A DNA stretch of 60,630 nt from an uncultured Candidatus Saccharibacteria bacterium (lineage in GTDB: Bacteria > Patescibacteriota > Doudnabacteria > UBA920). Of the stretch, positions 5,287 through 29,854 are shown piece by piece. The stretch covers positions 1 to 60,630 of the forward strand of contig CAZFTX010000006.1 of the NCBI GenBank assembly GCA_964521955.1, given 5' to 3'. Position numbers and translations under genes: made by a program. Within the stretch, counting starts at the first letter, position 1. Every line of letters begins with the position of its first letter. Below the pieces are notes generated by a model that was not told where the DNA came from, did not search any database, and worked only from the letters and a program-made list of their open reading frames with translations.

Positions 5287-5473
5287 AACACTTGGAGTGA
5301 AAAACCTGTGACCACCCCCTAAAATTCTTCGAATTTTGGGGAACCCCGAATTTAGGTTTTTTCCTTCCCTGCCTTGCCGGCAGACAGGCAAACCATCGCT
5401 AACGCTCGGCCTCCCTTTTCAACAAAGAATCCTTCGGGCAGGGGAACCCTGACCCTCAGGATGAAAAAAGCTA
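5287..5473 (+). repeat. GC-rich structured intergenic element, copy R1
   Basis: Begins right after the helicase stop with ACACTTGGAG. Long hairpin (AAAACCT 5301-5307 / AGGTTTT 5354-5360 enclosing 5316-5341), box CGCTAACGCTCGGCCTCCCTTTTC, hairpin CAGGG-GAA-CCCTG (5439-5451), and tail AGCTATAAATAAA. Near-identical blocks occur at 21972-22135. Confidence 0.8.
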
Positions 5474-5514
5474 TAAATAAATTTTTATTCTACAATTTTT
5501 GTGTTATAATAAAT

Positions 5515-5889
5515 ATGTTAAGAAACATAAAAAAATCATTTTTCTTCTTAATTACGAGCACAATTCTTGCTTCGATTTCGGTTTTCTCCATACTGTTTTA
5601 CTCTGACCCGGAATCTGCAGGAAAATTAACATTTTTCCTGATATACCTAAGTATATTTTTATGCTTGTTTGGCCTGTTTACACTGCTTGGAACTTTTATT
5701 AGAAAAAAGTTTACAACCGAAATACCAGGCAATATTCTTGGGCAAAGCCTAAGGCAGGGATTACAAATCGCCCTTTTAGTAACTGTTTCCTTATTGCTCT
5801 CCGCTAAAGGATTGTTATATTGGTGGGTGGAAGCAAGTTTAATTTTATTTTTTATTTTCTTTGAAATATTTTTTCACTTAAAGGACTAA
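5515..5889 (+). CDS. small polytopic membrane protein (hypothetical)
   Basis: 124 aa with about four hydrophobic segments. ATG 5515 follows TGTTATAAT (5502-5510). The longer track frame from 5374 reads through repeat R1. Confidence 0.6.
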   Translation: MLRNIKKSFFFLITSTILASISVFSILFYSDPESAGKLTFFLIYLSIFLCLFGLFTLLGTFIRKKFTTEIPGNILGQSLRQGLQIALLVTVSLLLSAKGLLYWWVEASLILFFIFFEIFFHLKD

Positions 5890-5895
5890 TTGCTT

Positions 5896-5922
5896 TAGAA
5901 GGGGGCGTACCGCCCCCTTCTA
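5896..5922 (+). terminator. GC-rich hairpin after the 5515 gene (terminator-like, no clear U-tract)
   Basis: TAGAAGGGGGCG-TAC-CGCCCCCTTCTA, a perfect 12-bp stem. Confidence 0.5.
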
Positions 5923-5924
5923 GT

Positions 5925-5995
5925 ACCTCACCCTGCATAAGGTGTCATTCGGACAGGCAAAGCCTGATCCTCATGACACAACAGCTATAAATAAA
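5925..5995 (+). repeat. solo copy (P) of the 3' module of the R element
   Basis: GTGTCATTCGGACAGGCAAAGCCTGATCCTCATGACACAACAGCTATAAATAAA aligns with 5425-5473 and 22088-22135. Hairpin CAGGC-AAA-GCCTG at 5954-5966. Confidence 0.7.
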
Positions 5996-7516
5996 ATGGA
6001 AGAAAAAAGCGTAGAAAATTTAATTAAAAAAATGAGCGTGGCCAAACCAGGCTCTCCGCCTGTTGAATTGCCACCAACTTTGGAGGCAGAGTTAGGAAAG
6101 AAAAATTTAATATTTTTTAATGTTATGCCAAAGGTAAAATCTGAAAACGAAATCGTCCAACCAACTGTTTCAATTTCCCAACCCTCGGAAAACGAAAATA
6201 ATACCACCACTGAAACCGAAGAAAGTCATTCAACGGTGTCAAAATTAAAAAAATTTAAAATCTATATAATATTAGCCGCCTTGCTACTTATTGGCGGTCC
6301 TTTAGTTTACTTTTTAGTAAACAAATTCGGTGCCGGTTCAGGAGGAAAATCCAGTATTATCATTAATGAAAGCGCAATTAAAGACCTCGCCAATAAAAAA
6401 CCAGCTGAAAACGAAGATGGCTTTACCATAACTACACCAAATGAGTGGCAGCTTAAATATTTTAACAACAAAACTTGTCAAAGCCTTTCGCTTTGTGGAG
6501 ACCAGGCTGATCCGGACTTAGACGGCCTTAAAAACATAGAAGAACACGAATTCCAAACTGACCCCAATAACAATGATTCAGACCAAGACGGCCTTGCTGA
6601 TGGGGACGAAATATTTGTATTTCTTACAAATGCCTTAAACCCCAAAACCGCAAACGACCCTACCTATAACGACTTAGACTACGTTAAAGGTGCTTATGAC
6701 ATTTCTACTGGGAGCAAGTTAAGCGAAAAACAACTTTTAGAAATAAGTTCTAAAATGGCAGAAAAGGGGCTTCATCCTCCCACACTTTCAAACGTTGGCG
6801 ATGTGCTAATTTCCATTTATGGATTTGAAAATACCCAAACAGAAACAGTTGCGCCAAAAACTGAAAACACTGAAAACACGGACCCTTCTACAGGCACTTT
6901 AGAAGAAAAACAAGACCGCGATGCACAAAGAAGCACGACAGTTAAAAATGTCGGAATTGCTTTAATTAAGTATAAAGAAGACTATGACCAATTTCCTCCT
7001 GGTAAAAATATTGAGGAAATATACGACAAGCTCAAGCCTTATAGCAAAGTACCAATTAACCCTAAAGACCCTTTAAACATAGAACCTTTCGTTTACACCT
7101 ACGAAATCAATGCAAATGCTGATGATTTTATTTTAACTTTCAGAAGCGAAATTGCAAACGAAGTTATTCGCAAACGGTCCGAAGATTCTAGAAAAGACCT
7201 ACTAATACAAGAAGCGGCGGTTTTGGACGATCAAAGAAAAAATGACTTAAAAAACTTGCAAACTGCACTCTTGCTTTACTCGGGAAACAACATTGCGGGA
7301 GAGCAAAATTACGTATTTCCAAAAGAAGACAAATACAAAATTGATTTAGTGCCAAAATATATTCCTGCAATACCAAAAGACCCAAAAACCAAACTTGATT
7401 ACGAATACAAAGTTTCTGAAACTTTTGATACTTTTACCTTAAAAGTTGTTTTGGACAATCCAAACCCAGGCACTACGGGCTACATGTGTAATCAAGAAGA
7501 CTGTAGAGAGTATTAA
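5996..7516 (+). CDS. membrane-anchored secreted protein with TSP3-like Ca-binding repeats and two pseudopilin-like C-terminal units
   Basis: ATG 5996 directly follows repeat P. TM helix IYIILAALLLIGGPLVYFLV. DPDLDGL...DPNNNDSDQDGLADGDE. Two units ending ...INPKDP and ...IPAIPKDPKT resemble T2SS/T4P pseudopilin globular domains. Confidence 0.6.
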   Translation: MEEKSVENLIKKMSVAKPGSPPVELPPTLEAELGKKNLIFFNVMPKVKSENEIVQPTVSISQPSENENNTTTETEESHSTVSKLKKFKIYIILAALLLIGGPLVYFLVNKFGAGSGGKSSIIINESAIKDLANKKPAENEDGFTITTPNEWQLKYFNNKTCQSLSLCGDQADPDLDGLKNIEEHEFQTDPNNNDSDQDGLADGDEIFVFLTNALNPKTANDPTYNDLDYVKGAYDISTGSKLSEKQLLEISSKMAEKGLHPPTLSNVGDVLISIYGFENTQTETVAPKTENTENTDPSTGTLEEKQDRDAQRSTTVKNVGIALIKYKEDYDQFPPGKNIEEIYDKLKPYSKVPINPKDPLNIEPFVYTYEINANADDFILTFRSEIANEVIRKRSEDSRKDLLIQEAAVLDDQRKNDLKNLQTALLLYSGNNIAGEQNYVFPKEDKYKIDLVPKYIPAIPKDPKTKLDYEYKVSETFDTFTLKVVLDNPNPGTTGYMCNQEDCREY

Positions 7517-7608: not shown

Positions 7609-7622
7609 ATCTCTTTTAATTT

Positions 7623-8039
7623 ATGATTTCTTTTTTAAAAAAACTTTTTTCTTCAACTAAGACAGTAAAAACTTTTCCAAATATTTTCACGGCAAAAGTT
7701 ATAGCAGTTGAAAAACACCCTAACGCAGACCGGCTTAGGGTTATTCGTCTTTCTTTAGGGGACAGGGAAGTCTACCCTGTGGTTTGCGGTGCCTGGAACT
7801 TTAAGGAAGGAGACATGGTGGTTTTAGCATTGCCCGGAGCGGTTATTCCTCAAAACATTCATAGCGAAAAACACGAATCATTTACTCTTAGTACGGCAAA
7901 ATTACGTGGGGTTGAAAGCCAGGGTATGATCTGTGCAAAATTTGAACTGGGTTTAGGCCCTTTAGATGACAAACCCGAAATTATCGTTTTAAATAGTTCA
8001 GTGACCCCCGGCACAACCTTTTCGTCCGAAATGCTTTAA
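7623..8039 (+). CDS. stand-alone tRNA-binding (tRNA_bind OB-fold) domain protein, PheT-N/CsaA-like
   Basis: KHPNADRLRVIRLSLG ... VVCGAWNFKEGDMVVLALPGAV ... KLRGVESQGMICAKFELGL. Confidence 0.8.
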   Translation: MISFLKKLFSSTKTVKTFPNIFTAKVIAVEKHPNADRLRVIRLSLGDREVYPVVCGAWNFKEGDMVVLALPGAVIPQNIHSEKHESFTLSTAKLRGVESQGMICAKFELGLGPLDDKPEIIVLNSSVTPGTTFSSEML

Positions 8040-8175
8040 TAATTGACAAAAATACTTGTCGCTGTCACATAAATTAGAAGCTTAAGCCAAACCACTGACA
8101 AGAAAATCTACCAATATTTTACTTTAGCTTTAATTAAGCGTATTATTGAGGTGGGAGGAGAAAATTTTTAATATC

Positions 8176-11100
8176 ATGAAAACCAAAAAACGAAAACTTT
8201 TTGAGTCAGGAGAAACTTCTCAACCTATTGATTTCACAAAATTTTTTAATGCTTTTAAAAAATCAGCGTCAATTTTGCTGATTTTTTTGTTTATTTTAAC
8301 ACCCTTAACACCAGCATTTGCACAGGAAGCTATTTTAGACAATTTAACTACAAACCCGACTACAGAAGATAATACCCCTTTGCCTGGGGTAGCTCCTACC
8401 AATGAAATTCCTAGTTCCGATATTCCAACAGAACAGGACAGTATTTCCGAAACAATAGATTCCACTGCAGGCCCTAATCCAAATGTTGATACTGTCGTTG
8501 TGCCCCAAGCTTCTAACCCTGAAGATGTTAAAGAAATATTACCGGAAGAAACTGTTCCACTTGGTGAAGAGGCATCGCTTTCAGATGAAGAGGGGTTAGA
8601 AACAGAAGACCCTCCACAGGGATTAATGGACTCCGGAGAAGGCTATGACGGTCCGGTTGACCCTAAAGCAAATGAGGTTGGACAGCGCCTTGCTCGGACT
8701 GATGAACATACCGGAGCTTTGGTTACAAATGTACCGATTGTATTACCACCGGGAAGAAACGGGATGCAACCAAATTTAGCACTTTCCTATAACTCTCAAA
8801 ACCAGGAAGATGGTAGTCCATTTGGTTATGGTTGGACACTTAACATTCCGTACATTGAGAGAGTCAATAAAATGGGGACTGAAAAATTATACAGTACCAC
8901 TAGCCCGGTTTTTTTCAGTTCGTCTTTAGACGGAGAACTTGCCACCACAACTGCTACTACAACTTATATTTCCAGGGTAGATTATGGTGACATGCGTTCC
9001 TATACCTTTTCCAATAATCAATGGACTGTTGTGGATAAATCCGGAACACAATATAAATTTGGACATGCCAGTTCCACACAACAGACCAGCACTTCTTCCG
9101 CTACACAAATCTATAAATGGATGTTAGAGGAGGTGCGTGACAAAAACGACAATTTCATTAAGTACACTTATTACAAAGATAGCGGCCAAATTTACCCCGA
9201 CACTATTTATTATACCGGCACCAGTACTGTAAACGGTATATTTAAAGTCGAATTTTTGCGGGAGAGCAGGATTGACGCTTTCCCTTCTTTCAAAACAGGT
9301 TTTTCGGTAAAGTCTTTATATCGAATATACCAAATAAAAGTTTATGTTAATAATGATGTAGTTAGAAAGTACGATTTAACTTACACGGCAGGCAACAACA
9401 CTGTTCGGTCTTTGCTCAATGTAGTCCAAGAATCCGGCTATGTGGAAGGTTCAAGTACACCGCAATCTTTGCCTTCTACAACTTTTACCTACCAAACAAG
9501 TAACGAAGGATTTGCTACAGACGCAAGTCGCAGCTTTCCAAGTGATGCGAAGCTAAATTTTGAATGGGGTGATAAACTCGCAGACGTTAACGGAGATGGT
9601 TTAGTTGATTATATGTCAAGTTATACTCATAATGGACAACAAACATATCAGAAGGTATATTTGCAGAAACCCGACGGTACTTGGGCAACTTCAACAACTT
9701 ATACTATTCCTTTTGTTTTTTATTATACTACATGGCTTTCTTTTCATTACACATACCTTTTAATAGTAGACGTTAACGCTGATGGCAGGATTGACCTTGT
9801 CCACGAGGACGGAAGTGTTTACATTAATAACGGTTCAAACTGGGTTGAAGATGTAAATTGGAATACGCCAGTTTATCTTTCTGATCCTTATCCTCCTCAT
9901 ACTGACGACGTTAACGGCGATGGGTTGCCTGATCTTGTTGCCAAGAATAACTCCGCGGTGTTCTTAAACACCGGTACTACCTGGGAGAGCGCGACTTCCA
10001 CAGTCTTTTCTGCGCCTTCAACAACGGAATTTTTTACAGACATAAATAACGATACTCTTACAGACTCGCTAATTTTAACTAGTAGCCCCAGCATAGCTCT
10101 TAGTAATGGAATAGGGGTTTGGGTAAACACAACTTCTACCCCGACCAGTTCATTACCGGGTCTTACCATCCCTTTAGATATTGACGGAGACGGTATGGCC
10201 GATCTGTTTGAAAGCAGTGTGGATTCGGGGGTTGCCCATAGGGACGCTTATCAAGGCACAGGACAAAGTTGGAACCAAAAGACCAACTGGATTCAGACTG
10301 ATGTAAATTTAAGATATAATATTCAGCCAACTGTAGACCGAGCACTGGATTGGAATGGCGACGGGTTACCGGATTTTTCAGTTGGAGGCGCCGCAAGGAT
10401 AAACCAAAACAAAAAGGCGGATTTGCTAACAAAAATAGATTATCCCACTGGCGGTTTTTCCGCAATTACTTACAAACCTTCAACCCAATATTCTACAAGT
10501 AATGTTTTAGACAACCCCTCCTTACCTTTGATTGTTTATACTGCCCAAAAGATTGAGAGTAACGACGGTACTTCCACCAGCACCAGTGACACTTATGTTT
10601 ATAAAGGTGGTAATTATTATTTTAACAACCCTTGGGACAAAAAATTTGCAGGTTTTGAACAGATTGTAAAAACTGACGCTGCCGGCAACGTTACTAAAAC
10701 TTTTTTCCACACTGCCAGCAGTACTGATTCTAGTCATGGCGAATATTTAGACAACTTGTGGAAAATAGGCAAGCCATATAGAGTCGAAAAATACGACAAT
10801 AACAGCAATCTGGTAAAAAAGACTATAAACAAATGGGATGTTGCAACTTCAACTCAAGCCGCGGGGTTTGTTAAGCTTGCTCAATCAGTTGTTTTTGACT
10901 ATGGCTCTAGCACAACACCTAAAAGCATGGCAGAAACCTATACTTATGATAATTCTACTGGCAACCTGACACAAAAAGTTGAGTATGGAGAAGTAACCGG
11001 AAGCGATGACGGTACTTTTAGCGATACAGGCACTGACGATTTTACTACCACATATACTTACGCTACAAGTTCTACCACAACGGTTATGAGTTTGCTGGCC

Positions 11101-14100
11101 AGTGACTCAACCGTTGACCATAGCAGTAACAAAGCTAAAGAAAGTAGGTATTATTATGACAACCTGGCTTTACGCATTGTTAATCTTGGAAATTTAACCA
11201 AAAGAGAAGACTGGAAAGTTAGCAGTACATACATAGACACCGAAAAAACATATAATAGTTATGGATTGGTGGTTACGGAAAAAGATCCGAGAGATAAAAC
11301 TACTACATATTCATACGACACAAACAATTTATACCCAACAAGAGTTACAAATCCAGTAAGTCATGTAAGTACTTATTCTTACGATTATTCATCCGGGAAA
11401 GTTGCAACTTCTACGGATCCAAATGGCAATATTTTTGTAAATGTCTATGACGGTCTAGACAGAGTGTTAAAACAAAAACAACCAGACCCGGCCGCAACTT
11501 CAACTCTCTTAACAGCGACGGATTTCACTTATACAGATATTGCCAGAGCAATGAGTGTTAAGAAAAGTAATTACTTGGATTCAGCAACCACTACTGACTC
11601 TTATATTTATTTGGACGGTTTGGGCAGAAAAATACAGGAACGCAAAGAAGCCACTAGCACCTATTTTTCGGTTAAAGACTTTGTCTACAACAACCGTGGG
11701 CTACTGTTAAAAGAAACACTCCCATATTTTTCTAGCGGGAGCGGTACAACCACAGCTACTAGCACTACCGCTCTTTATACTACTTATGTGTATGATGCGT
11801 TGCAGAGGGTTACGGCAACTAACAACGCAATAAGTACAAGCACAAACTCTTACTCAAATTGGAAGACCACAACTACAGATTTACGGGGTAAGGTAAAGCA
11901 CTACTATAGGGACGCTTATAATAATTTAATAAAGGTTGAGGAAGAAAATTTTGCAGCATCATCTTCAACGCCGTCTGAGTTATATAGTAATTCTTTATAT
12001 AACGATGCAAACCTTGTTGCCTATTATCGTTTGGAGGATTCCGCTGACAGTAAAGGGAGTTACACTTTAAGTGCTAATGGTAGCCCTTCTTCAGTTTCGG
12101 CCAAATTTAACAACGGCTATTCCTACAGTGCTTCTCCATACCACAATACTGGTTCGAATTTGGGTATTATCGGTGGTGCTGTAACAATTAGTGGTTGGGT
12201 TAAGATAAATGCAAATCCCTCTTCTGGGTCAACGTGGTATTTAGCTTCCCAATTTAACAGCTCAGCGAAGGTTGGCTATGATTTCTGGTATGGAAATAGT
12301 GGCGGAACTTATACATTCTCGGTAAATCGCGGAAAATCAGGAGTGTCGGATAATCCGGTAAGCGTTGCAGGTGATTTAGGCACTTCTGTTTACCATCATG
12401 TTGTTTTAACCTATGACGGTACGTCTCTTAAGGGTTATTTAGATGGCAATTTATTTGGAACACTCAGTACCAGCGGTAACGGTTCTGGAGGGTCAGTTAA
12501 CGATTTTGTTATAGGGTGTGCTTATAACGGCACTTCCTGTGGAAATATTAGTTGGGATGATATGGCGGTATTCAGTCGCGCTTTAAGTGCTACAGAAGTC
12601 ACTAGTTTGTATTCTGCAGGGTATTCTACATATATTTATACCACTAACTATGCTTATAACTATTTGGGAAATCTTACAAATATAACGGACGCTTCCGGTA
12701 ATGTCCGTAATTTTACCTATGACGGTCTGGGAAGAAGGTTAACAGCGCAAGACCTTCATGCTACAGGTGATAGTACTTATGGTACTTACACATACACATA
12801 TGACGACGCAGGGAACCTGACCTCTAAAGTTGATGCAAAAAACCAAACGATAAATTACACCTATGACAATATTAACCGCCCCCTAACAGAAGATTATACT
12901 GGTCAGGCTGGAACTGAAATTACTAATACTTACGACACGTGTACGCAAGGCAGGGGCAGAATGTGTACCGCTTCTTCCTCGGCTGTAACCTTAACTAATA
13001 CATATAATGCTTTAGGACAACTTACACAAGAAGTAAAAGTAATAAGTGGTAACAGCTATACAAGTACCTACACCTATGACAGACAGGGTAATCAACTTAT
13101 TTTAACAAATCCTGACAATTCGCAAGTTAAGTATATTTATGACAGTGCGGGCATGGTAGACCGGGTACAAAGGAAAGAGTCAACCGACGGGAGCTATACA
13201 GATGTAGTTTCAAGTATTGACTACAATCCATTAGGCCAGGAAACTGTAATCACTTTTGTTAATGGAGCCATAACTACCAACACATATGACGACAGTAAGT
13301 TATACCGCTTAGTTCGTAAAGTTACAACCATCCCTCAAGCAGAAGGGTTAATGGGAGAAATACCAGACTTTTCTGAAATTATAGACGAATTACCAGCGCC
13401 TGAAACCTCCACAAGCACTCCTTCCTCAACTTCTACCGAAGATTCTCTTGCCTCCTCAAGTCCTCTTTCTTTAAACAGTGAATCTCCGGGATTTTTTGCT
13501 AGTCTTTGGCAAACTGTTACGAATGGATTTGACAGAGTCATAAGTAGAATCGTTAAAACAGGAAGTTATATCGCCAGTTTATTTACCGTCAAAACAGCTA
13601 TGGCGGCTGCTATTGAGCTGTATTCCACTGACTTATTCAACGACGCTAACCTGACAGCGTACTACAGAATGGAAAATACAAATGACAGTAAAAATAGTTA
13701 TCATCTTACAGCAGTTAGTAGCCCCTCTTCTGTTTCCGCCAAATTTAACAACGGCTATTCCTATGGCGGTTCGCCCTACCACCATACCAATTCAAACTTA
13801 GGGATTAACGGCGGAGCAGTGACTATTAGCGGTTGGGTTAAGATTAATGCAAATCCCTCTTCTGGTACTACATGGTATATAGCTTCGCAGTTTAACAGCA
13901 CTTCAGATGTTGAATATGACATTTGGTATGGTAACAGCGGGGGAACCTATACACTTTCAGTTAACCGAGGTAAGTCAGGAGTGTCAGACAATCCTGTGAG
14001 CGTTGCGGGTGATTTAGGCACTTCTGTTTACCATCATGTAGTTCTGACTTACGACGGCACTACCTTAACTGGGTACCTAGACGGTTCTTCCTTTGGAACC

Positions 14101-15780
14101 AGCGGAACAAGTGGAAACGGATCAGGTGGGTCGGTTAATGATTTTGTCATAGGCTGTGCTTACAACGGCACTTCTTGCGGAAACATAACATGGGATGATA
14201 TAGCAGTATTTAACAGAGCTCTTACTTCAGGTGAAGTGTCGGATTTGTATAACGGGGACACTCCTACTCCTACAACCGTAATTCAGGACTTAACTTATAC
14301 TTATGACAACAACGGCAACATTACTGAAATAGCTGATGATTCGGAAACACATACTTCTAAAACTACGAATTATACTTACGACGACTTAAACCGTTTGACC
14401 GCCGCTTCAACCACCCTAGCAAGTTTTGGTAGTAATTATAACCAGACCTATACTTACGACGCTATTGGGAATATTACCAGTAAATCTGACCAAGGAACCT
14501 ATACCTATGCAGGAAATGGTTATACAAACCCTCACGCAGTTACAAGTATAGGAACCGCCACCTCTACCTATGACAACAACGGCAACCTACTTGCTATTAA
14601 AACTAACAATGCTACCACTACCCTTTACACTTGGGACTATAACAACCTCCTTATCAGAGCTTCTTCTACAACTTCCGGCTTTAGGGCCACTTCAACCTAC
14701 GACTCTTTTGGTCAAAGAGCTAAGTATGTAACAGGTACTTCTTCTCAAACAACTACTTACTATCCAAGTAAGGGGTATAATATAACAGGGTCTACTCCTA
14801 CTAAACACATCTTCCTACCAAATGGAACCATGATAGCTACAATAGTAGGTACAGGAACATCTACAACTGTAAGTTACATACATACTGAGCATTTAGGTGG
14901 AACTAACGTGGTTACCAATTCAGCAGGAGATGCCGTAACTCAGCTATTGGATTATTATCCTTATGGTACAAGGAGATTGAACGAAGGTACGGATGTTTCC
15001 CAGCGTGAATTTACTGGACATGAGTATGATGAAACTGAAGATTTAGTTTATATGGGGGCAAGGTACTATAATGCAAACATTGGTAAATTTATAACCCAAG
15101 ATCCTGTTTTTTGGGATTTTGATTATTCTAGGCTGACTGATCCGCAGATTTTTAATAGCTACACATATGCAAGGAATAATCCAATAACTTATACTGACCC
15201 AGATGGTAGAGATGCAGTATTAAAATTTGATGAGAAAAATAAAACAATAATTATTAGTTCGACGATATACATTTATGGAGAAGGTGCTACTCAGGATGTT
15301 GCAAATAGAATGCAGAAAGATATTTCTGAAGTATGGGATACGGGGTGGACATATACAGACGAAAAGACTAATACAAAGTATTCAGTAAAATTTGAGGTAG
15401 AAGTTAGAGTGACAAAGCATTCTTGGACACATGGATATAGAAATGATTCGAATGTTATACAGGTGGGTGGAGTGGATCGTTCATATGTTGACGCAAAAAA
15501 AGCCAAAAAAGGGGCTTGGAGGGAAAATGAACCAGACCCAGCACCACATGAATTTGGACACTTGTTGGGTTTAGATGATAGATACTCCGATGAGGGCGGT
15601 TCAGATGAGGGATGGGAGGGTAACATAATGGCGGAGCCTGCCATGGAAGGAAAAGTAGAACAAAAAAATATTGATTCAATAATTAAACCATACGCAGAGA
15701 GCCATAATAATAGGTGGTTTCCGAAGTGGAATAAATCCACAACCCACCACGTTGCTCCTCGTAACGGTAATTTTAGATAA
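8176..15780 (+). CDS. giant SpvB/TcB-TcC-like RHS (YD-repeat) polymorphic toxin with C-terminal Zn-metallopeptidase payload
   Basis: Signal-like N-terminus (ILLIFLFILTPLTPAFA/QEA). SpvB-like LPPGRNGMQPNLALSYNSQ..FGYGW. Five DxNGDG FG-GAP/VCBS repeats (9580-10380). Many YD repeats (YTYDxxGN/R). RHS core end YTYARNNPITYTDPDG (DPDG = 15196-15207). HEFGHLLGLDDRY (HEFGH = 15547-15561). ATG 8176 preferred over the track TTG at 8146. Confidence 0.9.
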   Translation: MKTKKRKLFESGETSQPIDFTKFFNAFKKSASILLIFLFILTPLTPAFAQEAILDNLTTNPTTEDNTPLPGVAPTNEIPSSDIPTEQDSISETIDSTAGPNPNVDTVVVPQASNPEDVKEILPEETVPLGEEASLSDEEGLETEDPPQGLMDSGEGYDGPVDPKANEVGQRLARTDEHTGALVTNVPIVLPPGRNGMQPNLALSYNSQNQEDGSPFGYGWTLNIPYIERVNKMGTEKLYSTTSPVFFSSSLDGELATTTATTTYISRVDYGDMRSYTFSNNQWTVVDKSGTQYKFGHASSTQQTSTSSATQIYKWMLEEVRDKNDNFIKYTYYKDSGQIYPDTIYYTGTSTVNGIFKVEFLRESRIDAFPSFKTGFSVKSLYRIYQIKVYVNNDVVRKYDLTYTAGNNTVRSLLNVVQESGYVEGSSTPQSLPSTTFTYQTSNEGFATDASRSFPSDAKLNFEWGDKLADVNGDGLVDYMSSYTHNGQQTYQKVYLQKPDGTWATSTTYTIPFVFYYTTWLSFHYTYLLIVDVNADGRIDLVHEDGSVYINNGSNWVEDVNWNTPVYLSDPYPPHTDDVNGDGLPDLVAKNNSAVFLNTGTTWESATSTVFSAPSTTEFFTDINNDTLTDSLILTSSPSIALSNGIGVWVNTTSTPTSSLPGLTIPLDIDGDGMADLFESSVDSGVAHRDAYQGTGQSWNQKTNWIQTDVNLRYNIQPTVDRALDWNGDGLPDFSVGGAARINQNKKADLLTKIDYPTGGFSAITYKPSTQYSTSNVLDNPSLPLIVYTAQKIESNDGTSTSTSDTYVYKGGNYYFNNPWDKKFAGFEQIVKTDAAGNVTKTFFHTASSTDSSHGEYLDNLWKIGKPYRVEKYDNNSNLVKKTINKWDVATSTQAAGFVKLAQSVVFDYGSSTTPKSMAETYTYDNSTGNLTQKVEYGEVTGSDDGTFSDTGTDDFTTTYTYATSSTTTVMSLLASDSTVDHSSNKAKESRYYYDNLALRIVNLGNLTKREDWKVSSTYIDTEKTYNSYGLVVTEKDPRDKTTTYSYDTNNLYPTRVTNPVSHVSTYSYDYSSGKVATSTDPNGNIFVNVYDGLDRVLKQKQPDPAATSTLLTATDFTYTDIARAMSVKKSNYLDSATTTDSYIYLDGLGRKIQERKEATSTYFSVKDFVYNNRGLLLKETLPYFSSGSGTTTATSTTALYTTYVYDALQRVTATNNAISTSTNSYSNWKTTTTDLRGKVKHYYRDAYNNLIKVEEENFAASSSTPSELYSNSLYNDANLVAYYRLEDSADSKGSYTLSANGSPSSVSAKFNNGYSYSASPYHNTGSNLGIIGGAVTISGWVKINANPSSGSTWYLASQFNSSAKVGYDFWYGNSGGTYTFSVNRGKSGVSDNPVSVAGDLGTSVYHHVVLTYDGTSLKGYLDGNLFGTLSTSGNGSGGSVNDFVIGCAYNGTSCGNISWDDMAVFSRALSATEVTSLYSAGYSTYIYTTNYAYNYLGNLTNITDASGNVRNFTYDGLGRRLTAQDLHATGDSTYGTYTYTYDDAGNLTSKVDAKNQTINYTYDNINRPLTEDYTGQAGTEITNTYDTCTQGRGRMCTASSSAVTLTNTYNALGQLTQEVKVISGNSYTSTYTYDRQGNQLILTNPDNSQVKYIYDSAGMVDRVQRKESTDGSYTDVVSSIDYNPLGQETVITFVNGAITTNTYDDSKLYRLVRKVTTIPQAEGLMGEIPDFSEIIDELPAPETSTSTPSSTSTEDSLASSSPLSLNSESPGFFASLWQTVTNGFDRVISRIVKTGSYIASLFTVKTAMAAAIELYSTDLFNDANLTAYYRMENTNDSKNSYHLTAVSSPSSVSAKFNNGYSYGGSPYHHTNSNLGINGGAVTISGWVKINANPSSGTTWYIASQFNSTSDVEYDIWYGNSGGTYTLSVNRGKSGVSDNPVSVAGDLGTSVYHHVVLTYDGTTLTGYLDGSSFGTSGTSGNGSGGSVNDFVIGCAYNGTSCGNITWDDIAVFNRALTSGEVSDLYNGDTPTPTTVIQDLTYTYDNNGNITEIADDSETHTSKTTNYTYDDLNRLTAASTTLASFGSNYNQTYTYDAIGNITSKSDQGTYTYAGNGYTNPHAVTSIGTATSTYDNNGNLLAIKTNNATTTLYTWDYNNLLIRASSTTSGFRATSTYDSFGQRAKYVTGTSSQTTTYYPSKGYNITGSTPTKHIFLPNGTMIATIVGTGTSTTVSYIHTEHLGGTNVVTNSAGDAVTQLLDYYPYGTRRLNEGTDVSQREFTGHEYDETEDLVYMGARYYNANIGKFITQDPVFWDFDYSRLTDPQIFNSYTYARNNPITYTDPDGRDAVLKFDEKNKTIIISSTIYIYGEGATQDVANRMQKDISEVWDTGWTYTDEKTNTKYSVKFEVEVRVTKHSWTHGYRNDSNVIQVGGVDRSYVDAKKAKKGAWRENEPDPAPHEFGHLLGLDDRYSDEGGSDEGWEGNIMAEPAMEGKVEQKNIDSIIKPYAESHNNRWFPKWNKSTTHHVAPRNGNFR
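11977..12612 (+). repeat. intragenic LamG/ConA-like unit 1 (636 nt)
   Basis: ELYSNSLYNDANLVAYYRLED...GWVKINANPSSG...VYHHVVLTYDG...NDFVIGCAYNGTSCGNISWDDMAVFSRAL. Same length as 13615-14250 and identical to it at most positions. Confidence 0.8.
13615..14250 (+). repeat. intragenic LamG/ConA-like unit 2 (636 nt)
   Basis: ELYSTDLFNDANLTAYYRMEN...GWVKINANPSSG...VYHHVVLTYDG...NDFVIGCAYNGTSCGNITWDDIAVFNRAL. Confidence 0.8.
14686..14897 (+). repeat. 212-bp handle inside the main rhs gene, identical to 16859-17070
   Basis: CCACTTCAACCTACGACTCTTTTGGTCAAAGAGC ... CATACTGAGCATTTAGG read identically at both sites; divergence starts right after. Confidence 0.9.
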
Positions 15781-15781
15781 A

Positions 15782-16204
15782 ATGCTTATGAAAAAAAATA
15801 CAAGTTTAATACTAATAGTAATAATTATTATAGGAGCAATTATTTTTATAGTATTTTATAAAAATAAGGCCTCGGAACCTATGATTGACAAGTCTCAAAA
15901 CGGCAAAGAAACACAAACTTATCAAGGGTATCTTATAAGAAACCCCGAAGCTATGTATTTTGTATATAATTACCCGCTGGAAGACAATAAAGATTCTGAG
16001 AAGTTTTGGGTTAAAGATCAAAATAACAAAGAAGTGATGAGTTGGGAAAAAAGTTTAGTCTGGAAACCTATTAGTCCAAATAGCAAATCAGAATTTGTTA
16101 AAGTTACCATAGTAGGCAAGTCTCACGGGCCTGGTGTGTATGGCGGAGTTCCCGGGTATAAGTTTGAGATCGAAGTTCATAATGTAAATCAAATTTTTGA
16201 ATAG
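15782..16204 (+). CDS. small N-terminally membrane-anchored protein; candidate immunity protein for the metallopeptidase payload
   Basis: ATG 2 nt after the rhs stop. MLMKKNTSLILIVIIIIGAIIFIVF anchor then a ~110-aa soluble domain. Position immediately 3' of a polymorphic toxin. Confidence 0.55.
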   Translation: MLMKKNTSLILIVIIIIGAIIFIVFYKNKASEPMIDKSQNGKETQTYQGYLIRNPEAMYFVYNYPLEDNKDSEKFWVKDQNNKEVMSWEKSLVWKPISPNSKSEFVKVTIVGKSHGPGVYGGVPGYKFEIEVHNVNQIFE

Positions 16205-16207
16205 GTC

Positions 16208-16828
16208 ATGGACGACAATGTAAAGTTAATAGATTATTTCCGTGCCAACATTTTTGAAGCGGAAAGTTCGTATAATGCTTGGAAGATGATATATTATGCT
16301 AGATGTACGCCTATCGTTGGGCAGAAATTAGCAGTACAATACACAAAAATTCAAAACTACCATAACCCTTTCTTTACTATTGCGGAACGTTCTCTTTTAA
16401 TTGCTTGGGTTTTGTTAAGCTGCCATGCATTTGATAAAGATAATCGCTCATGCTCTCTTTCAAAAGTTGATCCAGAATTATGTTCAAAATTTCTTGAAGA
16501 TGCAGAAAATAACAATATCATGGAGCAGTTAAAAACCACACGGGATAAACTTTTTGCACATAAGGAAAGTGGAATAGATCCAAAGTCAATTACTTTACCG
16601 AGCGTTGAAAGAATGGACGCATTTTTTACACGCTTAAAGATCTTGTATAATGAATTAAGCAAATTGGTTGATAGGTCTTTTACCGCTTTTGATTTTACGG
16701 ATGACGTCAAGCAAAGTATGGAGCATTTGTACATGAACTTAGAACGGGGAGAAACCATGCGCTTAAAAGAAATTGATATAGAATGGATGTGGAAAAAAGA
16801 CGATAGTAGAGCTTTAAAAAAAGTTTAG
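16208..16828 (+). CDS. cytoplasmic helical protein with HEPN-like Rx5H motif (AbiU2-like?)
   Basis: 206 aa with no TM segment. ...LKTTRDKLFAHKES... fits the HEPN Rx4-6H motif. The family call comes from pattern memory only. Confidence 0.5.
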   Translation: MDDNVKLIDYFRANIFEAESSYNAWKMIYYARCTPIVGQKLAVQYTKIQNYHNPFFTIAERSLLIAWVLLSCHAFDKDNRSCSLSKVDPELCSKFLEDAENNNIMEQLKTTRDKLFAHKESGIDPKSITLPSVERMDAFFTRLKILYNELSKLVDRSFTAFDFTDDVKQSMEHLYMNLERGETMRLKEIDIEWMWKKDDSRALKKV

Positions 16829-16852
16829 AATAAATAACTAGCCACAGGAGGA

Positions 16853-17944
16853 ATGAAAACCACTTCAACCTACGACTCTTTTGGTCAAAGAGCTAAGTAT
16901 GTAACAGGTACTTCTTCTCAAACAACTACTTACTATCCAAGTAAGGGGTATAATATAACAGGGTCTACTCCTACTAAACACATCTTCCTACCAAATGGAA
17001 CCATGATAGCTACAATAGTAGGTACAGGAACATCTACAACTGTAAGTTACATACATACTGAGCATTTAGGGGGTATAGGAGTTGCCACAAATGACTCTGC
17101 GGAAGTAGCCCAACTTGTAGATACCTACCCTTATGGTACTTTAAGACTAGACGAGCAGTCTGGGTTAAGTGAACAAAGGAAGGGTATAAGTGGGCATGAG
17201 TATGATACTGACACAGGACTAACATATGCTAATGCAAGGTATTATAATGGTGGTAGTGGGAGGTTTGTTAGTCAGGATCCGATGTTTTGGGAAACACCGG
17301 AAGAATATATTGAAGACCCTCAACAGTGGAATAGTTATAGCTATGCTAGGAATAATCCCTTGAATTTTGTTGATCTTCTGGGTATGTTTATTATTGAGAC
17401 TGGCAAGGTTGAGTTAAGTGATTCTTGGGATAGTATAACCACAGCCATAAATCAAGCTTACGGAGTCAATTATTCCATTGATACTGTAAAAAGCTTAAAT
17501 AATAATCCTAGCTGGATTTATGAAGGCCAGACTTTAGTTCCAAATAATAAAGTTCCCGATATCACTAATAAACTGAATTCAATAATGATTGAGCACTCCA
17601 GTGATATCCGTATTAACAACCCTTGGTGGTTCCGTGATGCAGTTAAAAAAGGAGGTGTATGGGATTTAAAAAATACCGAAGAATTTAATTCCGATAAGTA
17701 CCTAGATGGTTTTGTCTACAGCGGAAACAGAATAAGATATGATGCCCCTGGTAATATTCATTACGGGTTCGTAGGGTCAGGAGCTTTCTGGTCTTGGTCT
17801 AAACTTCTACTGAAAGAAGCCGGTAAGGCGCAGATTGCTGAAGGAAAGAGTAAAACTGAATGGAAGAAAGACTACTACGGAGATGATCCAACTGACCAGT
17901 ATTTCATAAAATTAGGTATTAGTTTATTCTACAAATTATGGTAA
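16853..17944 (+). CDS. orphan RHS C-terminal cassette: RHS core end + LysM-like segment + polymorphic-toxin type-44-like domain
   Basis: The first ~70 aa are identical to main RHS residues encoded at 14686-14897. Own core end YSYARNNPLNFVDLLG. SDSWDSITTAINQAYGVNYSIDTVKSLNNNPSWIYEGQTLVP (LysM-like). KKGGVWDLKN...APGNIHYGFVGSGAF...LLKEAGKAQ (type-44-like). Confidence 0.8.
   Translation: MKTTSTYDSFGQRAKYVTGTSSQTTTYYPSKGYNITGSTPTKHIFLPNGTMIATIVGTGTSTTVSYIHTEHLGGIGVATNDSAEVAQLVDTYPYGTLRLDEQSGLSEQRKGISGHEYDTDTGLTYANARYYNGGSGRFVSQDPMFWETPEEYIEDPQQWNSYSYARNNPLNFVDLLGMFIIETGKVELSDSWDSITTAINQAYGVNYSIDTVKSLNNNPSWIYEGQTLVPNNKVPDITNKLNSIMIEHSSDIRINNPWWFRDAVKKGGVWDLKNTEEFNSDKYLDGFVYSGNRIRYDAPGNIHYGFVGSGAFWSWSKLLLKEAGKAQIAEGKSKTEWKKDYYGDDPTDQYFIKLGISLFYKLW
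16859..17070 (+). repeat. 212-bp handle in the orphan cassette (copy 2)
   Basis: See 14686-14897. Confidence 0.9.
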
Positions 17945-17957
17945 AGCAGTGTTAAAT

Positions 17958-18383
17958 ATGAATAATAAGAAAAAAATAGCTCTGATTATAATTTTAGTAT
18001 TATTAGCTTACGGCTACTATTATTTTACATATGAATTTAATTTATTAGGTGAGTGTGGTAAGTATGATGTAAATAAAGCACAATCTTCTAATCAAAAATT
18101 TGAGTTAGAGTATTACATTCTTAATTGCGGTGCTACATCAGACTACGCAACCCAAATGAAATTAAAAGATTTAACATTAAATACTGAAGAAATAGTTGTT
18201 AATATTAGAGGAAATTTTATTAGTAATGAAAACGTAGAGTCAGTAATAGTTGAGTGGTTAAATCCAAACCAAGTTAACATAACTTACAATGGACAAGAGG
18301 ACAGAATTTATAAATACCAGAATCAATATAAGGATATATCGATTCACTTAATTAATAATGGGTCTGTTGTAATGCCCAGATAA
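17958..18383 (+). CDS. small membrane-anchored protein; candidate immunity protein for the orphan toxin
   Basis: ATG 17958 (the track uses GTG 17949). KKKIALIIILVLLAYGYYYF anchor. Lies immediately 3' of the orphan toxin. Confidence 0.55.
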   Translation: MNNKKKIALIIILVLLAYGYYYFTYEFNLLGECGKYDVNKAQSSNQKFELEYYILNCGATSDYATQMKLKDLTLNTEEIVVNIRGNFISNENVESVIVEWLNPNQVNITYNGQEDRIYKYQNQYKDISIHLINNGSVVMPR

Positions 18384-18621
18384 ATTGACTTCTGACCACA
18401 CCTTTTTTAATATAATGGGTAATTGAAAAAGTTATATCTTTTCTTATTAAAATTATGTAATGATTTGATATTCTTAAGAACTGAAAAAGATGTCAGATAC
18501 AATTATTGATATTAAAAATAATTAGTTGGGTTTTTAAATATAGTTTCTTCCTCACCTTTCTCTTTCCACAAATTTGACCGTATGTTATATTTAACATTAC
18601 TTAAACCGAATACATAAAAAC

Positions 18622-19761
18622 ATGAGTGAAATTGTTATTGATAATTCTGAAGAAATTCGTTTAAAAAAAGAGTTAGAAAAAAGGACCGACTTTGAAGCTT
18701 TAAGGATAAAGCGGTATTTAAGCATGCCTGACCTCTCAAGAAAAGAGGGGAGCCCGCTTCACCAAATGGTAAAAAACATTTTAAGTATTCCAGACTTTCA
18801 AGCTTTAGACGACATAAAAATTCCTGAAATTGTTCCAGCAGATATTAGTTTTGACTTGTTTGACTTTCCTAAAGACCACCCGGCCAGAAGCAAGTCCGAC
18901 ACTTACTATATTGATGAAAAAAACATTTTGCGCACCCACACAACAGTTATGTGGTACTATTTTTTAAATGACATCGCTGTAAAAGAAAAAATTAAAAACA
19001 ACCAAGCAGTGGGAAGTTTGTGCTACGGTAAAGTATATAGAAAAGACGAAATTGACAGGCATCACATGAATGTTTTTCACCAAATAGACGGCTGGTACCT
19101 CTCCCCAAAAGACCAAAAAATTATTGGTCAAAAAGACTTGGAAAATGTTTTGTCCAATATTGCAAAGGCAGTCTTTGGTCCAGAAATTAATTACAGATTC
19201 AACAAAGACACTTTCCCATATACGGACCCTTCCTTAGAAATGGAAATAGAAATAAACGACAAATGGGTAGAAGTTTTAGGCAGCGGAGTAGTCAAAGGAA
19301 GTGTTTTAGACAAATTAGGGGTAGACTCTTCTAAATATACAGGCTGGGCTTTTGGTTTTGGTTTAGAAAGACTAGCTATAGTTAGCATGCAACTGCCTGA
19401 CATTCGCCTGCTATGGAGCGAAGACGAAAGAGTAATTAAACAACTAAAATTAGGGCAAAAGTTTGTGGAAGTAAGCAAGTTCCCTCCAATTACTAGAGAT
19501 ATTTCTTTTATAGTTGAAAATACTTTTGTACCGAACAATTATTTTGACCTTATACGTGAAATTGGTGGGGACTTAGTTGAACAAGTTGAACTTTTAGACA
19601 AGTACGAAAATGAAGCAAAATTTGGTAAAAACAAAGTAAGTTACACCTACAGAGTTGTGTACCGAAGTCCTGAAAGGACCTTAAAATCCGAAGAGGTAGA
19701 CCCCTTGCAAAACAAGCTTTATGAACAAACAAAAACTGTTTATAACGCTGAACTTCGTTAG
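18622..19761 (+). CDS. pheS: phenylalanine--tRNA ligase, monomeric mitochondrial-type (PheS catalytic core fused to FDX-ACB domain)
   Basis: Class II motifs (FPYTDPSLEMEI, GWAFGFGLERLAI, PDIRLLWSEDERVIKQL). C-terminal SKFPPITRDISF...FDLIREIGGDLVEQVELLDKYE...YTYRVVYRSPERTL is an FDX-ACB domain (19474-19758). Confidence 0.88.
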   Translation: MSEIVIDNSEEIRLKKELEKRTDFEALRIKRYLSMPDLSRKEGSPLHQMVKNILSIPDFQALDDIKIPEIVPADISFDLFDFPKDHPARSKSDTYYIDEKNILRTHTTVMWYYFLNDIAVKEKIKNNQAVGSLCYGKVYRKDEIDRHHMNVFHQIDGWYLSPKDQKIIGQKDLENVLSNIAKAVFGPEINYRFNKDTFPYTDPSLEMEIEINDKWVEVLGSGVVKGSVLDKLGVDSSKYTGWAFGFGLERLAIVSMQLPDIRLLWSEDERVIKQLKLGQKFVEVSKFPPITRDISFIVENTFVPNNYFDLIREIGGDLVEQVELLDKYENEAKFGKNKVSYTYRVVYRSPERTLKSEEVDPLQNKLYEQTKTVYNAELR

Positions 19762-19835
19762 GGCCATTTTAACTCTTAAATAAGAGCGAAATTACTAGAA
19801 TTTTCTATGGTGTTTTTGTGTGTTTTATGCTATAA

Positions 19836-21971
<2,136 letters not shown>

Positions 21972-24707: not shown

Positions 24708-24745
24708 CTATACACTTAGCACTACTCACTAATAACTCAACTTCC

Positions 24746-29785: not shown

Positions 29786-29854
29786 GTTGAAATTTGAAAT
29801 ATGAATTAAGTATTAAGAATCATGGGAAAAACCATAATTCATAATTCAAAATCC

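Follow-up and report, generated by a model that had tools for sequence, protein, structure and literature searches.

We analysed a stretch of 60,630 nucleotides (contig CAZFTX010000006.1, positions 1 to 60,630 of the forward strand; hereafter the window) from an uncultured bacterium whose lineage is given as Patescibacteriota, Doudnabacteria, and found within it one very large gene that encodes an RHS-repeat protein with the domain order of the B and C components (TcB and TcC) of toxin complexes (Tc). The gene is a single intact open reading frame (ORF), the longest open frame of the region, and its product has a calculated mass of 278 kDa and a pI of 4.7. The likely start is the ATG at 8176, which lies nine bases downstream of GGTGGGAGGAG, a strong ribosome-binding site, and the stop codon occupies positions 15778-15780. 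The public gene call begins at TTG 8146 and yields a product of 2,544 amino acids (aa), and for this reason an exact-sequence look-up of the 2,534-aa product returned no match. An open frame of ~2,540 codons in DNA of 38-40% GC cannot be attributed to chance, and we therefore regard the ORF as real. Promoter and terminator scans of the locus gave nothing better than shuffled sequence.

An earlier note on this DNA, made from the letters and translations alone, had described a signal-like N-terminus, an SpvB-like region, five DxNGDG repeats, long YD-repeat tracts, a canonical RHS core end and a payload of ~190 aa (~21 kDa), and our domain analysis recovered every one of these elements. Residues 31-49 are the sole strongly hydrophobic segment of the protein and end in AFA|QE; the pattern LLxFLF...AxE is kept across the family, as seen in the family consensus, and the six cysteines of the protein, which are grouped as three close pairs, were counted with the evidence for export. 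The linker behind the signal varies in length from 4 to 143 aa among relatives. Pfam recognizes the SpvB domain (PF03534) at aa 178-337, and the SpvB N-terminal domain structure 6p0x was matched both by the family profile (E 2e-6) and in Foldseek (root-mean-square deviation 3.5). The five DxNGDG repeats lie at aa 470, 532, 578, 668 and 725 (nucleotides 9583-10362), and besides them there is a sixth repeat at aa 622 that has degenerated to DINNDT. The propeller formed by these six blades (Pfam FG-GAP_3, E 6e-18) falls in a region with a profile match to the corresponding region of TcdB1 and YenB. RHS repeats are indeed present (E 4e-24), but the tracts are not continuous, being broken by two Laminin_G_3 domains and a linker rich in Ser and Thr. 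The core end was identified by TIGR03696 over aa 2260-2344, with YTYARNNPITYTDPDG at aa 2329-2344, and the tail that would follow the predicted cut has the expected length and mass.

Table 1. Features of the RHS toxin locus in the window, with nucleotide positions, strand and supporting evidence.
Feature	Position	Strand	Evidence or remark
Main gene, 2,534-aa fused TcB/TcC-type RHS protein	8176..15780	+	
Sec-type signal peptide, aa 1-49, hydrophobic core aa 31-49, AFA|QE	8176..8322	+	Hydropathy maximum of the protein
Acidic Pro/Thr/Ser-rich linker, aa 50-169	8323..8682	+	Translation; no Pfam match
SpvB/TcaC-type N-terminal domain and middle region, aa 170-465	8683..9570	+	Pfam SpvB E 2.3e-13
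Six-bladed FG-GAP beta-propeller, DxNxD motifs at aa 470, 532, 578, 622, 668, 725	9571..10410	+	
RHS/YD shell block 1, aa 746-1275 (TcB half of shell)	10411..12000	+	RHS_repeat matches
LamG/ConA-like insert 1, aa 1276-1488	12001..12639	+	Pfam Laminin_G_3 in two stretches, E 1.2e-29
RHS/YD shell block 2, aa 1489-1735	12640..13380	+	RHS_repeat E 8e-22; PDB RhsA 7q97 E 7e-12
S/T/P-rich linker and amphipathic segment ending KTAMAA, aa 1736-1825	13381..13650	+	Translation
LamG/ConA-like insert 2, aa 1826-2030	13651..14265	+	Copy of insert 1
RHS/YD shell block 3, aa 2031-2259 (TcC half)	14266..14952	+	RHS_repeat; profile match to TccC3 and YenC2
Recombination tract, 214 nucleotides	14687..14900	+	99.5% identical to 16860-17073 at the orphan start
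Rhs core end, putative aspartyl autoprotease residues R2296, D2309, D2341	14953..15210	+	TIGR03696 E 9.5e-18
Payload, 189-aa, 21.65-kDa metzincin-like zinc metallopeptidase (predicted)	15211..15777	+	HEFGHLLGLDD aa 2458-2468; Met-turn GNIM aa 2482-2485
Immunity candidate 1, 140 aa, one N-terminal membrane helix	15782..16204	+	Role proposed from position only
206-aa ORF, weakly HEPN/AbiU2-like	16208..16828	+	Pfam PF18734 E 4.4e-6, 26.7 bits (cutoff 26.8)
Orphan Rhs tip, 363 aa	16853..17944	+	Own AGGAGG ribosome-binding site and ATG
Immunity candidate 2, 144-aa DUF5412 protein	17949..18383	+	Pfam PF17428 E 3.5e-8
Accessory island, 10.6 kb	8043..18648	+	Between the tRNA-binding-domain gene 7623-8039 and pheS 18622-19761

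Single-sequence searches of the PDB were too weak to decide membership in the TcB group, since they returned only RhsA and Tse5, followed by YenB at E 0.006. For this reason we used a family profile and a structure model. The profile was built from alignment A2, which holds the N-terminal 1,106 aa and 22 homologues, and was searched against the PDB. It matched the TcdB2-TccC3 fusion at E 1e-66 in three stretches, and it matched TcdB1 (E 1.5e-32) and YenB (E 4e-27) colinearly across the middle and propeller region; matches to Rhs proteins of type VI secretion systems (T6SS) ranged from E 1e-38 to 1e-14 and were confined to the shell. An AlphaFold2 model of aa 170-1275 had a mean predicted local distance difference test score (pLDDT) of 82.9 and a predicted template modelling score (pTM) of 0.85. 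When this model was compared with the PDB by Foldseek, the top 13 matches were all TcB chains (TcdB1, TcdB2 and YenB), with E 1e-52 to 1e-45 and template modelling scores (TM) of 0.74-0.80. The next group, composed of T6SS Rhs proteins, teneurins and a bacterial teneurin-like protein, reached TM 0.10-0.25, with the teneurins at 0.10-0.19. The earlier note had taken the protein for a single-chain BC cocoon and proposed a structural comparison with TcB/TcC and teneurin shells; both the profile and the TcB-only top structure matches agree with that reading. A TcB-then-TcC architecture in one chain is thus supported by profile and model, and on this basis the predicted protein has every structural property by which a Tc BC subcomplex is defined.

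The core end can be aligned with TcdB2-TccC3 residue by residue: ARYY corresponds to YRYY, TQDP to SSDP, and NNPITYTDPDGR to NNPVTLLDPDGL, and the Rhs core motif NPITYTDPDG aligns with TccC3 in the pattern PxxxxDxxG. R2296, D2309 and D2341 fall on the RYY, SSDP and DPDG positions of TccC3, and the alignment of the three segments therefore places them at the positions of the Arg/Asp/Asp triad. The conserved aspartyl-protease-like residues to which the earlier note attached importance are accordingly found at the core end. In TccC3 the published catalytic aspartates are D651 and D674 (PMC7861908). The cleavage rule tested in the same work, in which a positively charged P-1 residue pairs with Asp at P-3 (PMC7861908), is followed by the cut predicted here after DPDGR2345, where DPDGR|D offers Arg at P-1 and Asp at P-3. 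We infer from these correspondences that the C-terminal domain is probably cleaved and encapsulated.

The tail behind the predicted cut has 22 homologues in the word index, all of them short proteins composed of an Rhs tip and this same domain, and none of them has a Pfam assignment. In alignment A1, which joins the payload to these homologues (23 sequences), the columns H2458, E2459, H2462, G2465, D2468, W2480, I2484 and M2485 are invariant. The resulting pattern HExxHxxGxxD...GW.GNIM, in which the W, I and M of the Met-turn stretch never vary and its G and N hardly do, is by its residues the metzincin signature, with Asp as the predicted third zinc ligand as in snapalysin. The payload profile matched snapalysin (1C7K/4HX3) at E 0.004. 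An AlphaFold2 model of the payload (pLDDT 86.8) had only metzincins as its top Foldseek neighbors (fragilysin, MMP7, TACE and snake-venom metalloproteinases), at TM of only 0.38-0.45, and the match to Pfam Reprolysin_4 scored 19.6 bits, under the cutoff of 22. The payload thus shares with snapalysin (M7) and with fragilysin/adamalysin-type metzincins a small size, the HExxHxxGxxD motif and the Met-turn, and with snapalysin the Asp ligand; it differs from them in that identity is below 16%, TM is ~0.42, no curated family accepts it, and it always stands behind an Rhs tip. An exhaustive search with the payload profile gave 69,208 matches, which we discarded as inflated by the Rhs tip within the alignment, and we used the tier at E < 1e-30, which comprises 298 representative clusters (50% identity); the matches sit terminally in proteins that measure up to 2,913 aa. 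From sequence and model, the payload appears to belong to an uncurated, Rhs-borne, metzincin-like toxin family. Two homologues of the payload, P0125 and P0126 (L089 4001-4783), carry a Sec signal of their own fused to a vestigial Rhs tip (…DPxR…VDxDGHNA), and no small co-directional gene lies immediately downstream of P0126; these proteins look like a toxin cassette that has turned into a free secreted protease.

In a full-length alignment of the window protein with 25 homologues, the body common to the family measures ~1,950 aa. It consists of the signal, the variable linker, the SpvB domain (~172 aa), a middle region (~120 aa) and the propeller (~320 aa), followed by RHS blocks of ~516, 234 and 220 aa, a core of 86-102 aa and a tail of ~190 aa. 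The window protein adds to this body the first LamG domain between RHS blocks 1 and 2, where most homologues have just 3 residues, and the S/T-rich linker, amphipathic segment and second LamG domain between blocks 2 and 3. The two LamG domains are 76% identical over 231 aa, and the DNA that encodes them contains a repeat (11976-12275 and 13614-13913) at 73% identity; these values indicate that the copies arose through internal duplication. Both insertion sites are shared with P0004 and P0005; other inserts occur at the second site in P0008 and P0016, and LamG or other domains occur at different sites in P0002, P0020, P0024 and P0029. The variety of inserts indicates that the shell has insertion hot spots with exchangeable modules. 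The LamG domains probably face outward as binding domains, because the cavity that holds the cargo has scant room for two folded domains of 200 aa. Directly before the second of them, and behind the S/T/P-rich stretch of low complexity, lies an amphipathic segment of ~40 aa ending in KTAMAA; the homologues P0002, P0004 and P0005 have this arrangement too, with KTAYA or NAAFAA at the end. We considered whether this segment is an internal transmembrane helix and rejected the idea since its hydropathy of 1.2 is below membrane level; the site was also rejected as a B/C boundary, at which two genes would have been fused and a relic signal peptide retained, since most homologues run straight through it.

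Further genes of the island lie behind the toxin gene. The first of them, which we regard as an immunity candidate, begins 2 nucleotides after the toxin stop codon, is described as translationally coupled, and has no match in any of the family libraries searched (Pfam, PADLOC and NCBIfam). Small downstream ORFs are found in L003, L004, L005, L006 and L090 as well. The 206-aa HEPN-like ORF that follows (16208-16828) had no match in the PADLOC and NCBIfam scans and may serve in defence or else confer immunity to a toxin that has since been lost. The orphan Rhs tip contains the last shell strands, an Rhs core at aa 92-178 (TIGR03696, E 2.5e-17) and an Ntox44 domain at aa 259-359 (Pfam, E 3.9e-13). 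It aligns with the main protein from aa 2169 on, its residues 4-74 are identical to aa 2172-2242 of the main protein, and in a local DNA alignment the similarity falls abruptly beyond the 214-nucleotide tract. The second immunity candidate, a DUF5412 protein, has a clear topology, its N-terminal anchor being KKK followed by a hydrophobic helix. The PADLOC and NCBIfam scans of the small ORFs of the island gave no matches. A search of 83 family loci for relatives of the two immunity candidates, of the HEPN-like ORF and of the payload found essentially none; the Ntox44 domain turns up again in L037 and L084.

Of 82 related loci, 21 contain short downstream ORFs that encode an Rhs core, in runs of up to three, and the window has such an ORF too. 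A main gene accompanied by an orphan tip and an immunity cassette is the classic arrangement of Rhs loci and is common in this family. Some loci of the family contain three successive orphan Rhs tips of ~440 aa behind the main gene (L015 18013-22822 and L046 16815-22948, one tip in L046 measuring 711 aa), a far bigger stock than the one orphan of the window. Both immunity candidates of the window have N-terminal membrane anchors, and the genes that follow payload homologues in L005 and L006 encode proteins of 118-120 aa with lipoprotein-type signals, which are similar to each other and unlike the window candidate. Because the immunity proteins would thus be exported, we infer that the protease acts outside the cytoplasm of the target, on the cell envelope. 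The Sec signal that the payload homologues P0125 and P0126 carry themselves points the same way.

Comparison with close relatives shows that the toxin locus is a separate unit within a conserved neighborhood. By blastn, L007 4265-4687 corresponds to window 7620-8042 and L007 4724-5989 to window 18649-19913, which leaves only 37 bp in L007 where the window has the toxin locus. The locus is accordingly an accessory island of 10.6 kb and does not belong to the conserved core. L007 (DNA 85-89% identical to the window, GyrB 96% identical) and L008 (GyrB 88% identical) have the same gene order, with the tRNA_bind gene followed directly by PheS and GyrB, and no island. The rest of the window encodes housekeeping functions (RmuC, a UvrD/AddA-like helicase, PheS, GyrB, GreA, DnaB, DnaE, FtsW and a release factor), including five aminoacyl-tRNA synthetases besides PheS. 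The nearest named relatives of its GyrB (78-88% identity) are Candidatus Doudnabacteria and Patescibacteria, which fits the earlier suggestion of an episymbiont-like cell with an otherwise minimal housekeeping context. Phage-integrase genes were found in L003 (1234-2298 and 8880-9863), one of them directly before P0002, the closest homologue, and the other further upstream; because P0002 adjoins such a gene, this suggests that toxin genes of the family travel on integrative elements. No integrase is present within the island of the window.

The variability of this island between strains, together with promoter-like sites that are no commoner than in shuffled sequence, could be read as signs of a horizontally acquired remnant that is silent or in decay and has no current function. 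We consider this very improbable, because the 7.6-kb frame is fully open behind a strong ribosome-binding site, the catalytic motifs are all intact (the R/D/D residues of the core, and HExxH with the Met-turn in the payload), the immunity candidate is translationally coupled, and contigs assembled from two public read sets are identical to the window from position 17329 onwards, in the downstream part of the island.

The absence of the gene from relatives also bears on the possibility that the protein is a surface adhesin similar to teneurin, in which the LamG domains and the propeller would hold the episymbiont on its host and the C-terminal protease would be a processing or nutrient-releasing enzyme. 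Patescibacteria rely on attachment, the protein has two lectin-like domains and its relatives carry variable decorations, and one payload homologue is a free secreted protease without a neighboring immunity gene. Teneurins and bacterial teneurin-like proteins also show that RHS shells take part in cell contact (PMC13018210). However, the autoproteolysis residues are intact, family members have exchanged the tail for nucleases and other toxins of classic type, and orphan tips with immunity-like partners are common. Additionally, the gene is missing from a syntenic relative whose DNA is 85-89% identical, and from a second relative as well, which means that the protein is not an essential attachment organelle. 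An adhesin therefore seems rather unlikely to us.

The window protein is not unusual for its lineage: from sequence comparisons it has hundreds of homologues, mostly in Patescibacteria. A protein search gave 782 matches at E < 1e-5 among 8,000 candidates scored, and the best 120 of these matches are proteins of 1,900-3,900 aa with the same domain set. Homologues that are ~40-50% identical carry Ntox44, barnase, HNH, REase-7, VanY/M15_4, CHAP or SLT tails, and the tails diverge directly after the core motif. In the locus scan, which used one genome per species, we found 286 relatives and examined the best 80. These 80 belong mostly to Patescibacteria of many classes, with a few from Methanoperedens, Acidobacteriota, Bacteroidota or bins labelled Proteobacteria.

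In agreement with the earlier note, there is no TcA-like gene in the window, where the largest ORFs other than the toxin encode DnaE and the UvrD/AddA-like helicase. We also listed every ORF of at least 800 aa in the 80 loci, of which 86 belong to the toxin family and 26 do not. The seven largest of these 26 comprise RpoB, RpoC, one protein with a carbohydrate-binding module and four without a Pfam match, and no TcA-type domain was found among the seven. Nothing TcA-like was seen among the called genes around P0002 (L003) and P0005 (L004). Judging from the genes, TcA is not encoded in cis within the window and the related loci covered.

A TcA gene could still be located elsewhere, in which case the protein would be the BC part of a true three-part Tc (ABC) toxin whose TcA pentamer would bind the propeller and deliver the protease into eukaryotic cells, for example those of protists or invertebrates. 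The global fold and profile similarity is to TcB-TcC in particular and not to other Rhs classes, the propeller is strongly conserved, and the window represents no more than 60 kb of the genome. Genes in which B and C are naturally fused are on record from bacteria that contain TcA (PMC7861908). Against this, tc genes normally cluster, and yet neither the window nor any of 82 related loci was found to have an adjoining TcA gene. The protein carries a signal peptide of the Sec type, and its locus has membrane-anchored immunity candidates and orphan cassettes, which are hallmarks of interbacterial systems. Further, the tails of the family include peptidoglycan hydrolases (VanY, M15, CHAP and SLT), which have no eukaryotic target, and the contigs that bear homologues (the largest ~1.2 Mb) are small for tcA, a gene of ~7.5 kb, to be a common cargo. 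We consider an ABC toxin quite unlikely. Rather, the gene probably encodes a Sec-exported, single-chain TcB-then-TcC polymorphic toxin that is independent of TcA and aimed at neighboring bacteria, a reading in which we place somewhat more trust than doubt.

Among known systems, the Tc BC cocoon (TcdB2-TccC3 of Photorhabdus and YenB-YenC2 of Yersinia entomophaga; PDB 4O9X, 6H6E and 4IGL) has the same domain order as the window protein, namely an SpvB-type domain, a six-bladed propeller, an RHS shell, an R/D/D core and a variable tail, and the cleavage-site pattern DPDGR|D of the window protein corresponds as well. The window protein differs in being a single natural chain with a Sec signal, a long acidic linker and two LamG domains in the shell; its locus has immunity-like genes and an orphan tip downstream, and no TcA was found in cis. 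The hosts differ also, since Tc BC cocoons come from insect pathogens and the window from a small-genome lineage of Patescibacteria. The TcdB/TcaC class of polymorphic toxins was defined in 2012 by Zhang, de Souza, Anantharaman, Iyer and Aravind (PMC3482391) by the order of signal peptide, SpvB domain, integrin-like propeller, RHS repeats and variable C-terminal toxin, with Tox-MPTase metallopeptidase toxins listed. The window protein fits this definition exactly, whereas Patescibacteria were outside that survey and LamG inserts within the repeats are absent from its description (PMC3482391). The payload had no match to the Pfam Tox-MPTase models.

WapA of Bacillus subtilis, which stands here for the Sec-dependent Rhs toxins of monoderm bacteria, is a Sec-exported RHS protein with a C-terminal toxin, an immunity gene and orphan cassettes, and it is delivered without T6SS or TcA. 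It has wall-binding repeats and no SpvB and propeller half, and its known toxins are cytoplasmic tRNases. The window system is similar to WapA in Sec export, tail toxin, downstream immunity candidate and orphan cassette, and differs from it in the TcB-type N-terminal half and in a payload that looks like an envelope-acting protease.

Bacterial teneurin-like proteins (BiTLP, PDB 9IFO/9PT5) are Sec-exported YD shells around a small polymorphic toxin and have adhesion domains and immunity genes (PMC13018210). Their core end is similar to that of the window protein (E 1e-6), whereas their N-terminal closure is of the teneurin type and the window N-terminal half gave a TM of only 0.13 against 9IFO. 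T6SS Rhs effectors (RhsA 7Q97, Tse5 8CP6 and Tse15 8UXT) share the RHS cocoon and the core autoprotease motif and are antibacterial with immunity genes, but their global fold matches the window model at a TM of only 0.14-0.25; PAAR, VgrG-binding or clade domains of the T6SS type were not found in the window protein with Pfam and NCBIfam, and no T6SS gene was seen in the window. In its lifestyle the system resembles the WapA-like and teneurin-like Sec-exported Rhs toxins, while its fold is unlike that of the teneurin-like proteins.

Taken together, the two LamG inserts, a payload that looks like a protease, the candidate immunity genes, the orphan cassette and the location in an island shift the reading toward bacterial targets. 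The targets of a TcA-independent toxin would then be other bacteria, either competitors or the host cell of the episymbiont, and not animals. In such a system, the two lectin-like LamG domains may project from the shell and bind surface glycans of neighboring cells, and the metzincin-like protease, cut off after Arg2345, may be held largely unfolded within the shell. Once freed, it would act outside the target cytoplasm on proteins or peptides of the cell envelope, and the producer would be shielded by the small membrane-anchored protein translated right behind the toxin. The orphan tip with Ntox44 and the DUF5412 protein may serve as a spare toxin/immunity cassette that replaces the tail by recombination via the 214-nucleotide tract. 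How the shell would be opened calls for a bolder proposal, which we offer as possible, though doubtful: Patescibacteria would have turned the BC cocoon into a self-sufficient contact weapon, in which, once the protein is exported by Sec, lectin-like modules at the insertion hot spots of the shell (LamG in the window protein, other domains in relatives) pick the target and the propeller gate is opened by a factor other than TcA. This factor might be a component of the target envelope or an undescribed partner made by the producer. If the proposal is true, RHS cocoons would have a new mechanism of release, by which episymbionts possibly attack, or feed on, their host bacteria.

Several points weigh against this interpretation as a whole. 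In Tc toxins, the TcB-type propeller is the gate on which TcA docks, and its strong conservation across the family (alignment A2) could imply that a docking partner exists; with 60 kb of the genome covered, TcA or another translocator encoded elsewhere is possible. We know of no release mechanism for cocoons that lack both TcA and T6SS. The fold match of the payload model to metzincins is consistent but weak (TM ~0.42), and its best Pfam match is below the cutoff. Lastly, no similarity could be detected between the first immunity candidate and the small proteins whose genes follow payload homologues, and the candidate's membrane orientation is ambiguous from charge alone.

The architecture is already known as a class, and for the window gene itself the result is mostly a fuller annotation of a kind of locus that is to be expected. 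The point of interest is general rather than specific to the window, and it concerns how a complete BC cocoon works without TcA. The working of RHS cocoons is understood only for those that TcA or T6SS opens as a delivery machine, and here a large family in very small genomes combines the complete TcB-TcC architecture with a Sec signal and no TcA nearby. This family is therefore a natural place to ask how a cocoon frees its cargo alone and how ultra-small episymbionts fight neighbors or damage hosts. The LamG inserts point to exchangeable targeting modules, and with the payload comes a metzincin-like toxin family, so far uncurated, that would comprise ~300 clusters at 50% identity. We found no dedicated description in the literature of the Rhs/SpvB/Tc family of Patescibacteria, of LamG-decorated shells or of the payload family.

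Outside the island, several further features of the window were observed. An Asp/Asn-type class II tRNA synthetase (22803-24707) is extended at its C-terminus by a DUF2000 domain (aa 499-634, E 4e-15). This domain is absent from the L007 (485 aa) and L008 (497 aa) orthologues, and nothing in L007 corresponds to window 24254-24731. Upstream of the UvrD/AddA-like helicase-nuclease, overlapping ORFs (1368-2323) encode a NYN-domain protein (169 aa) and a PIN-domain protein (149 aa); both also occur in L008 with a 130-aa ORF between them, and they may be a nuclease pair or a module similar to toxin-antitoxin systems. Between the helicase and the tRNA-binding gene lie ORFs of 171 and 524 aa (5374-7516), which had no Pfam or PADLOC match and whose position is kept in L007 and L008. 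Two tandem glycosyltransferases of the PMT_2 (dolichyl-phosphate-mannose-like) type are encoded at 28199-31567 on the reverse strand; they are likewise kept in L007 and L008 and probably function in surface glycosylation.

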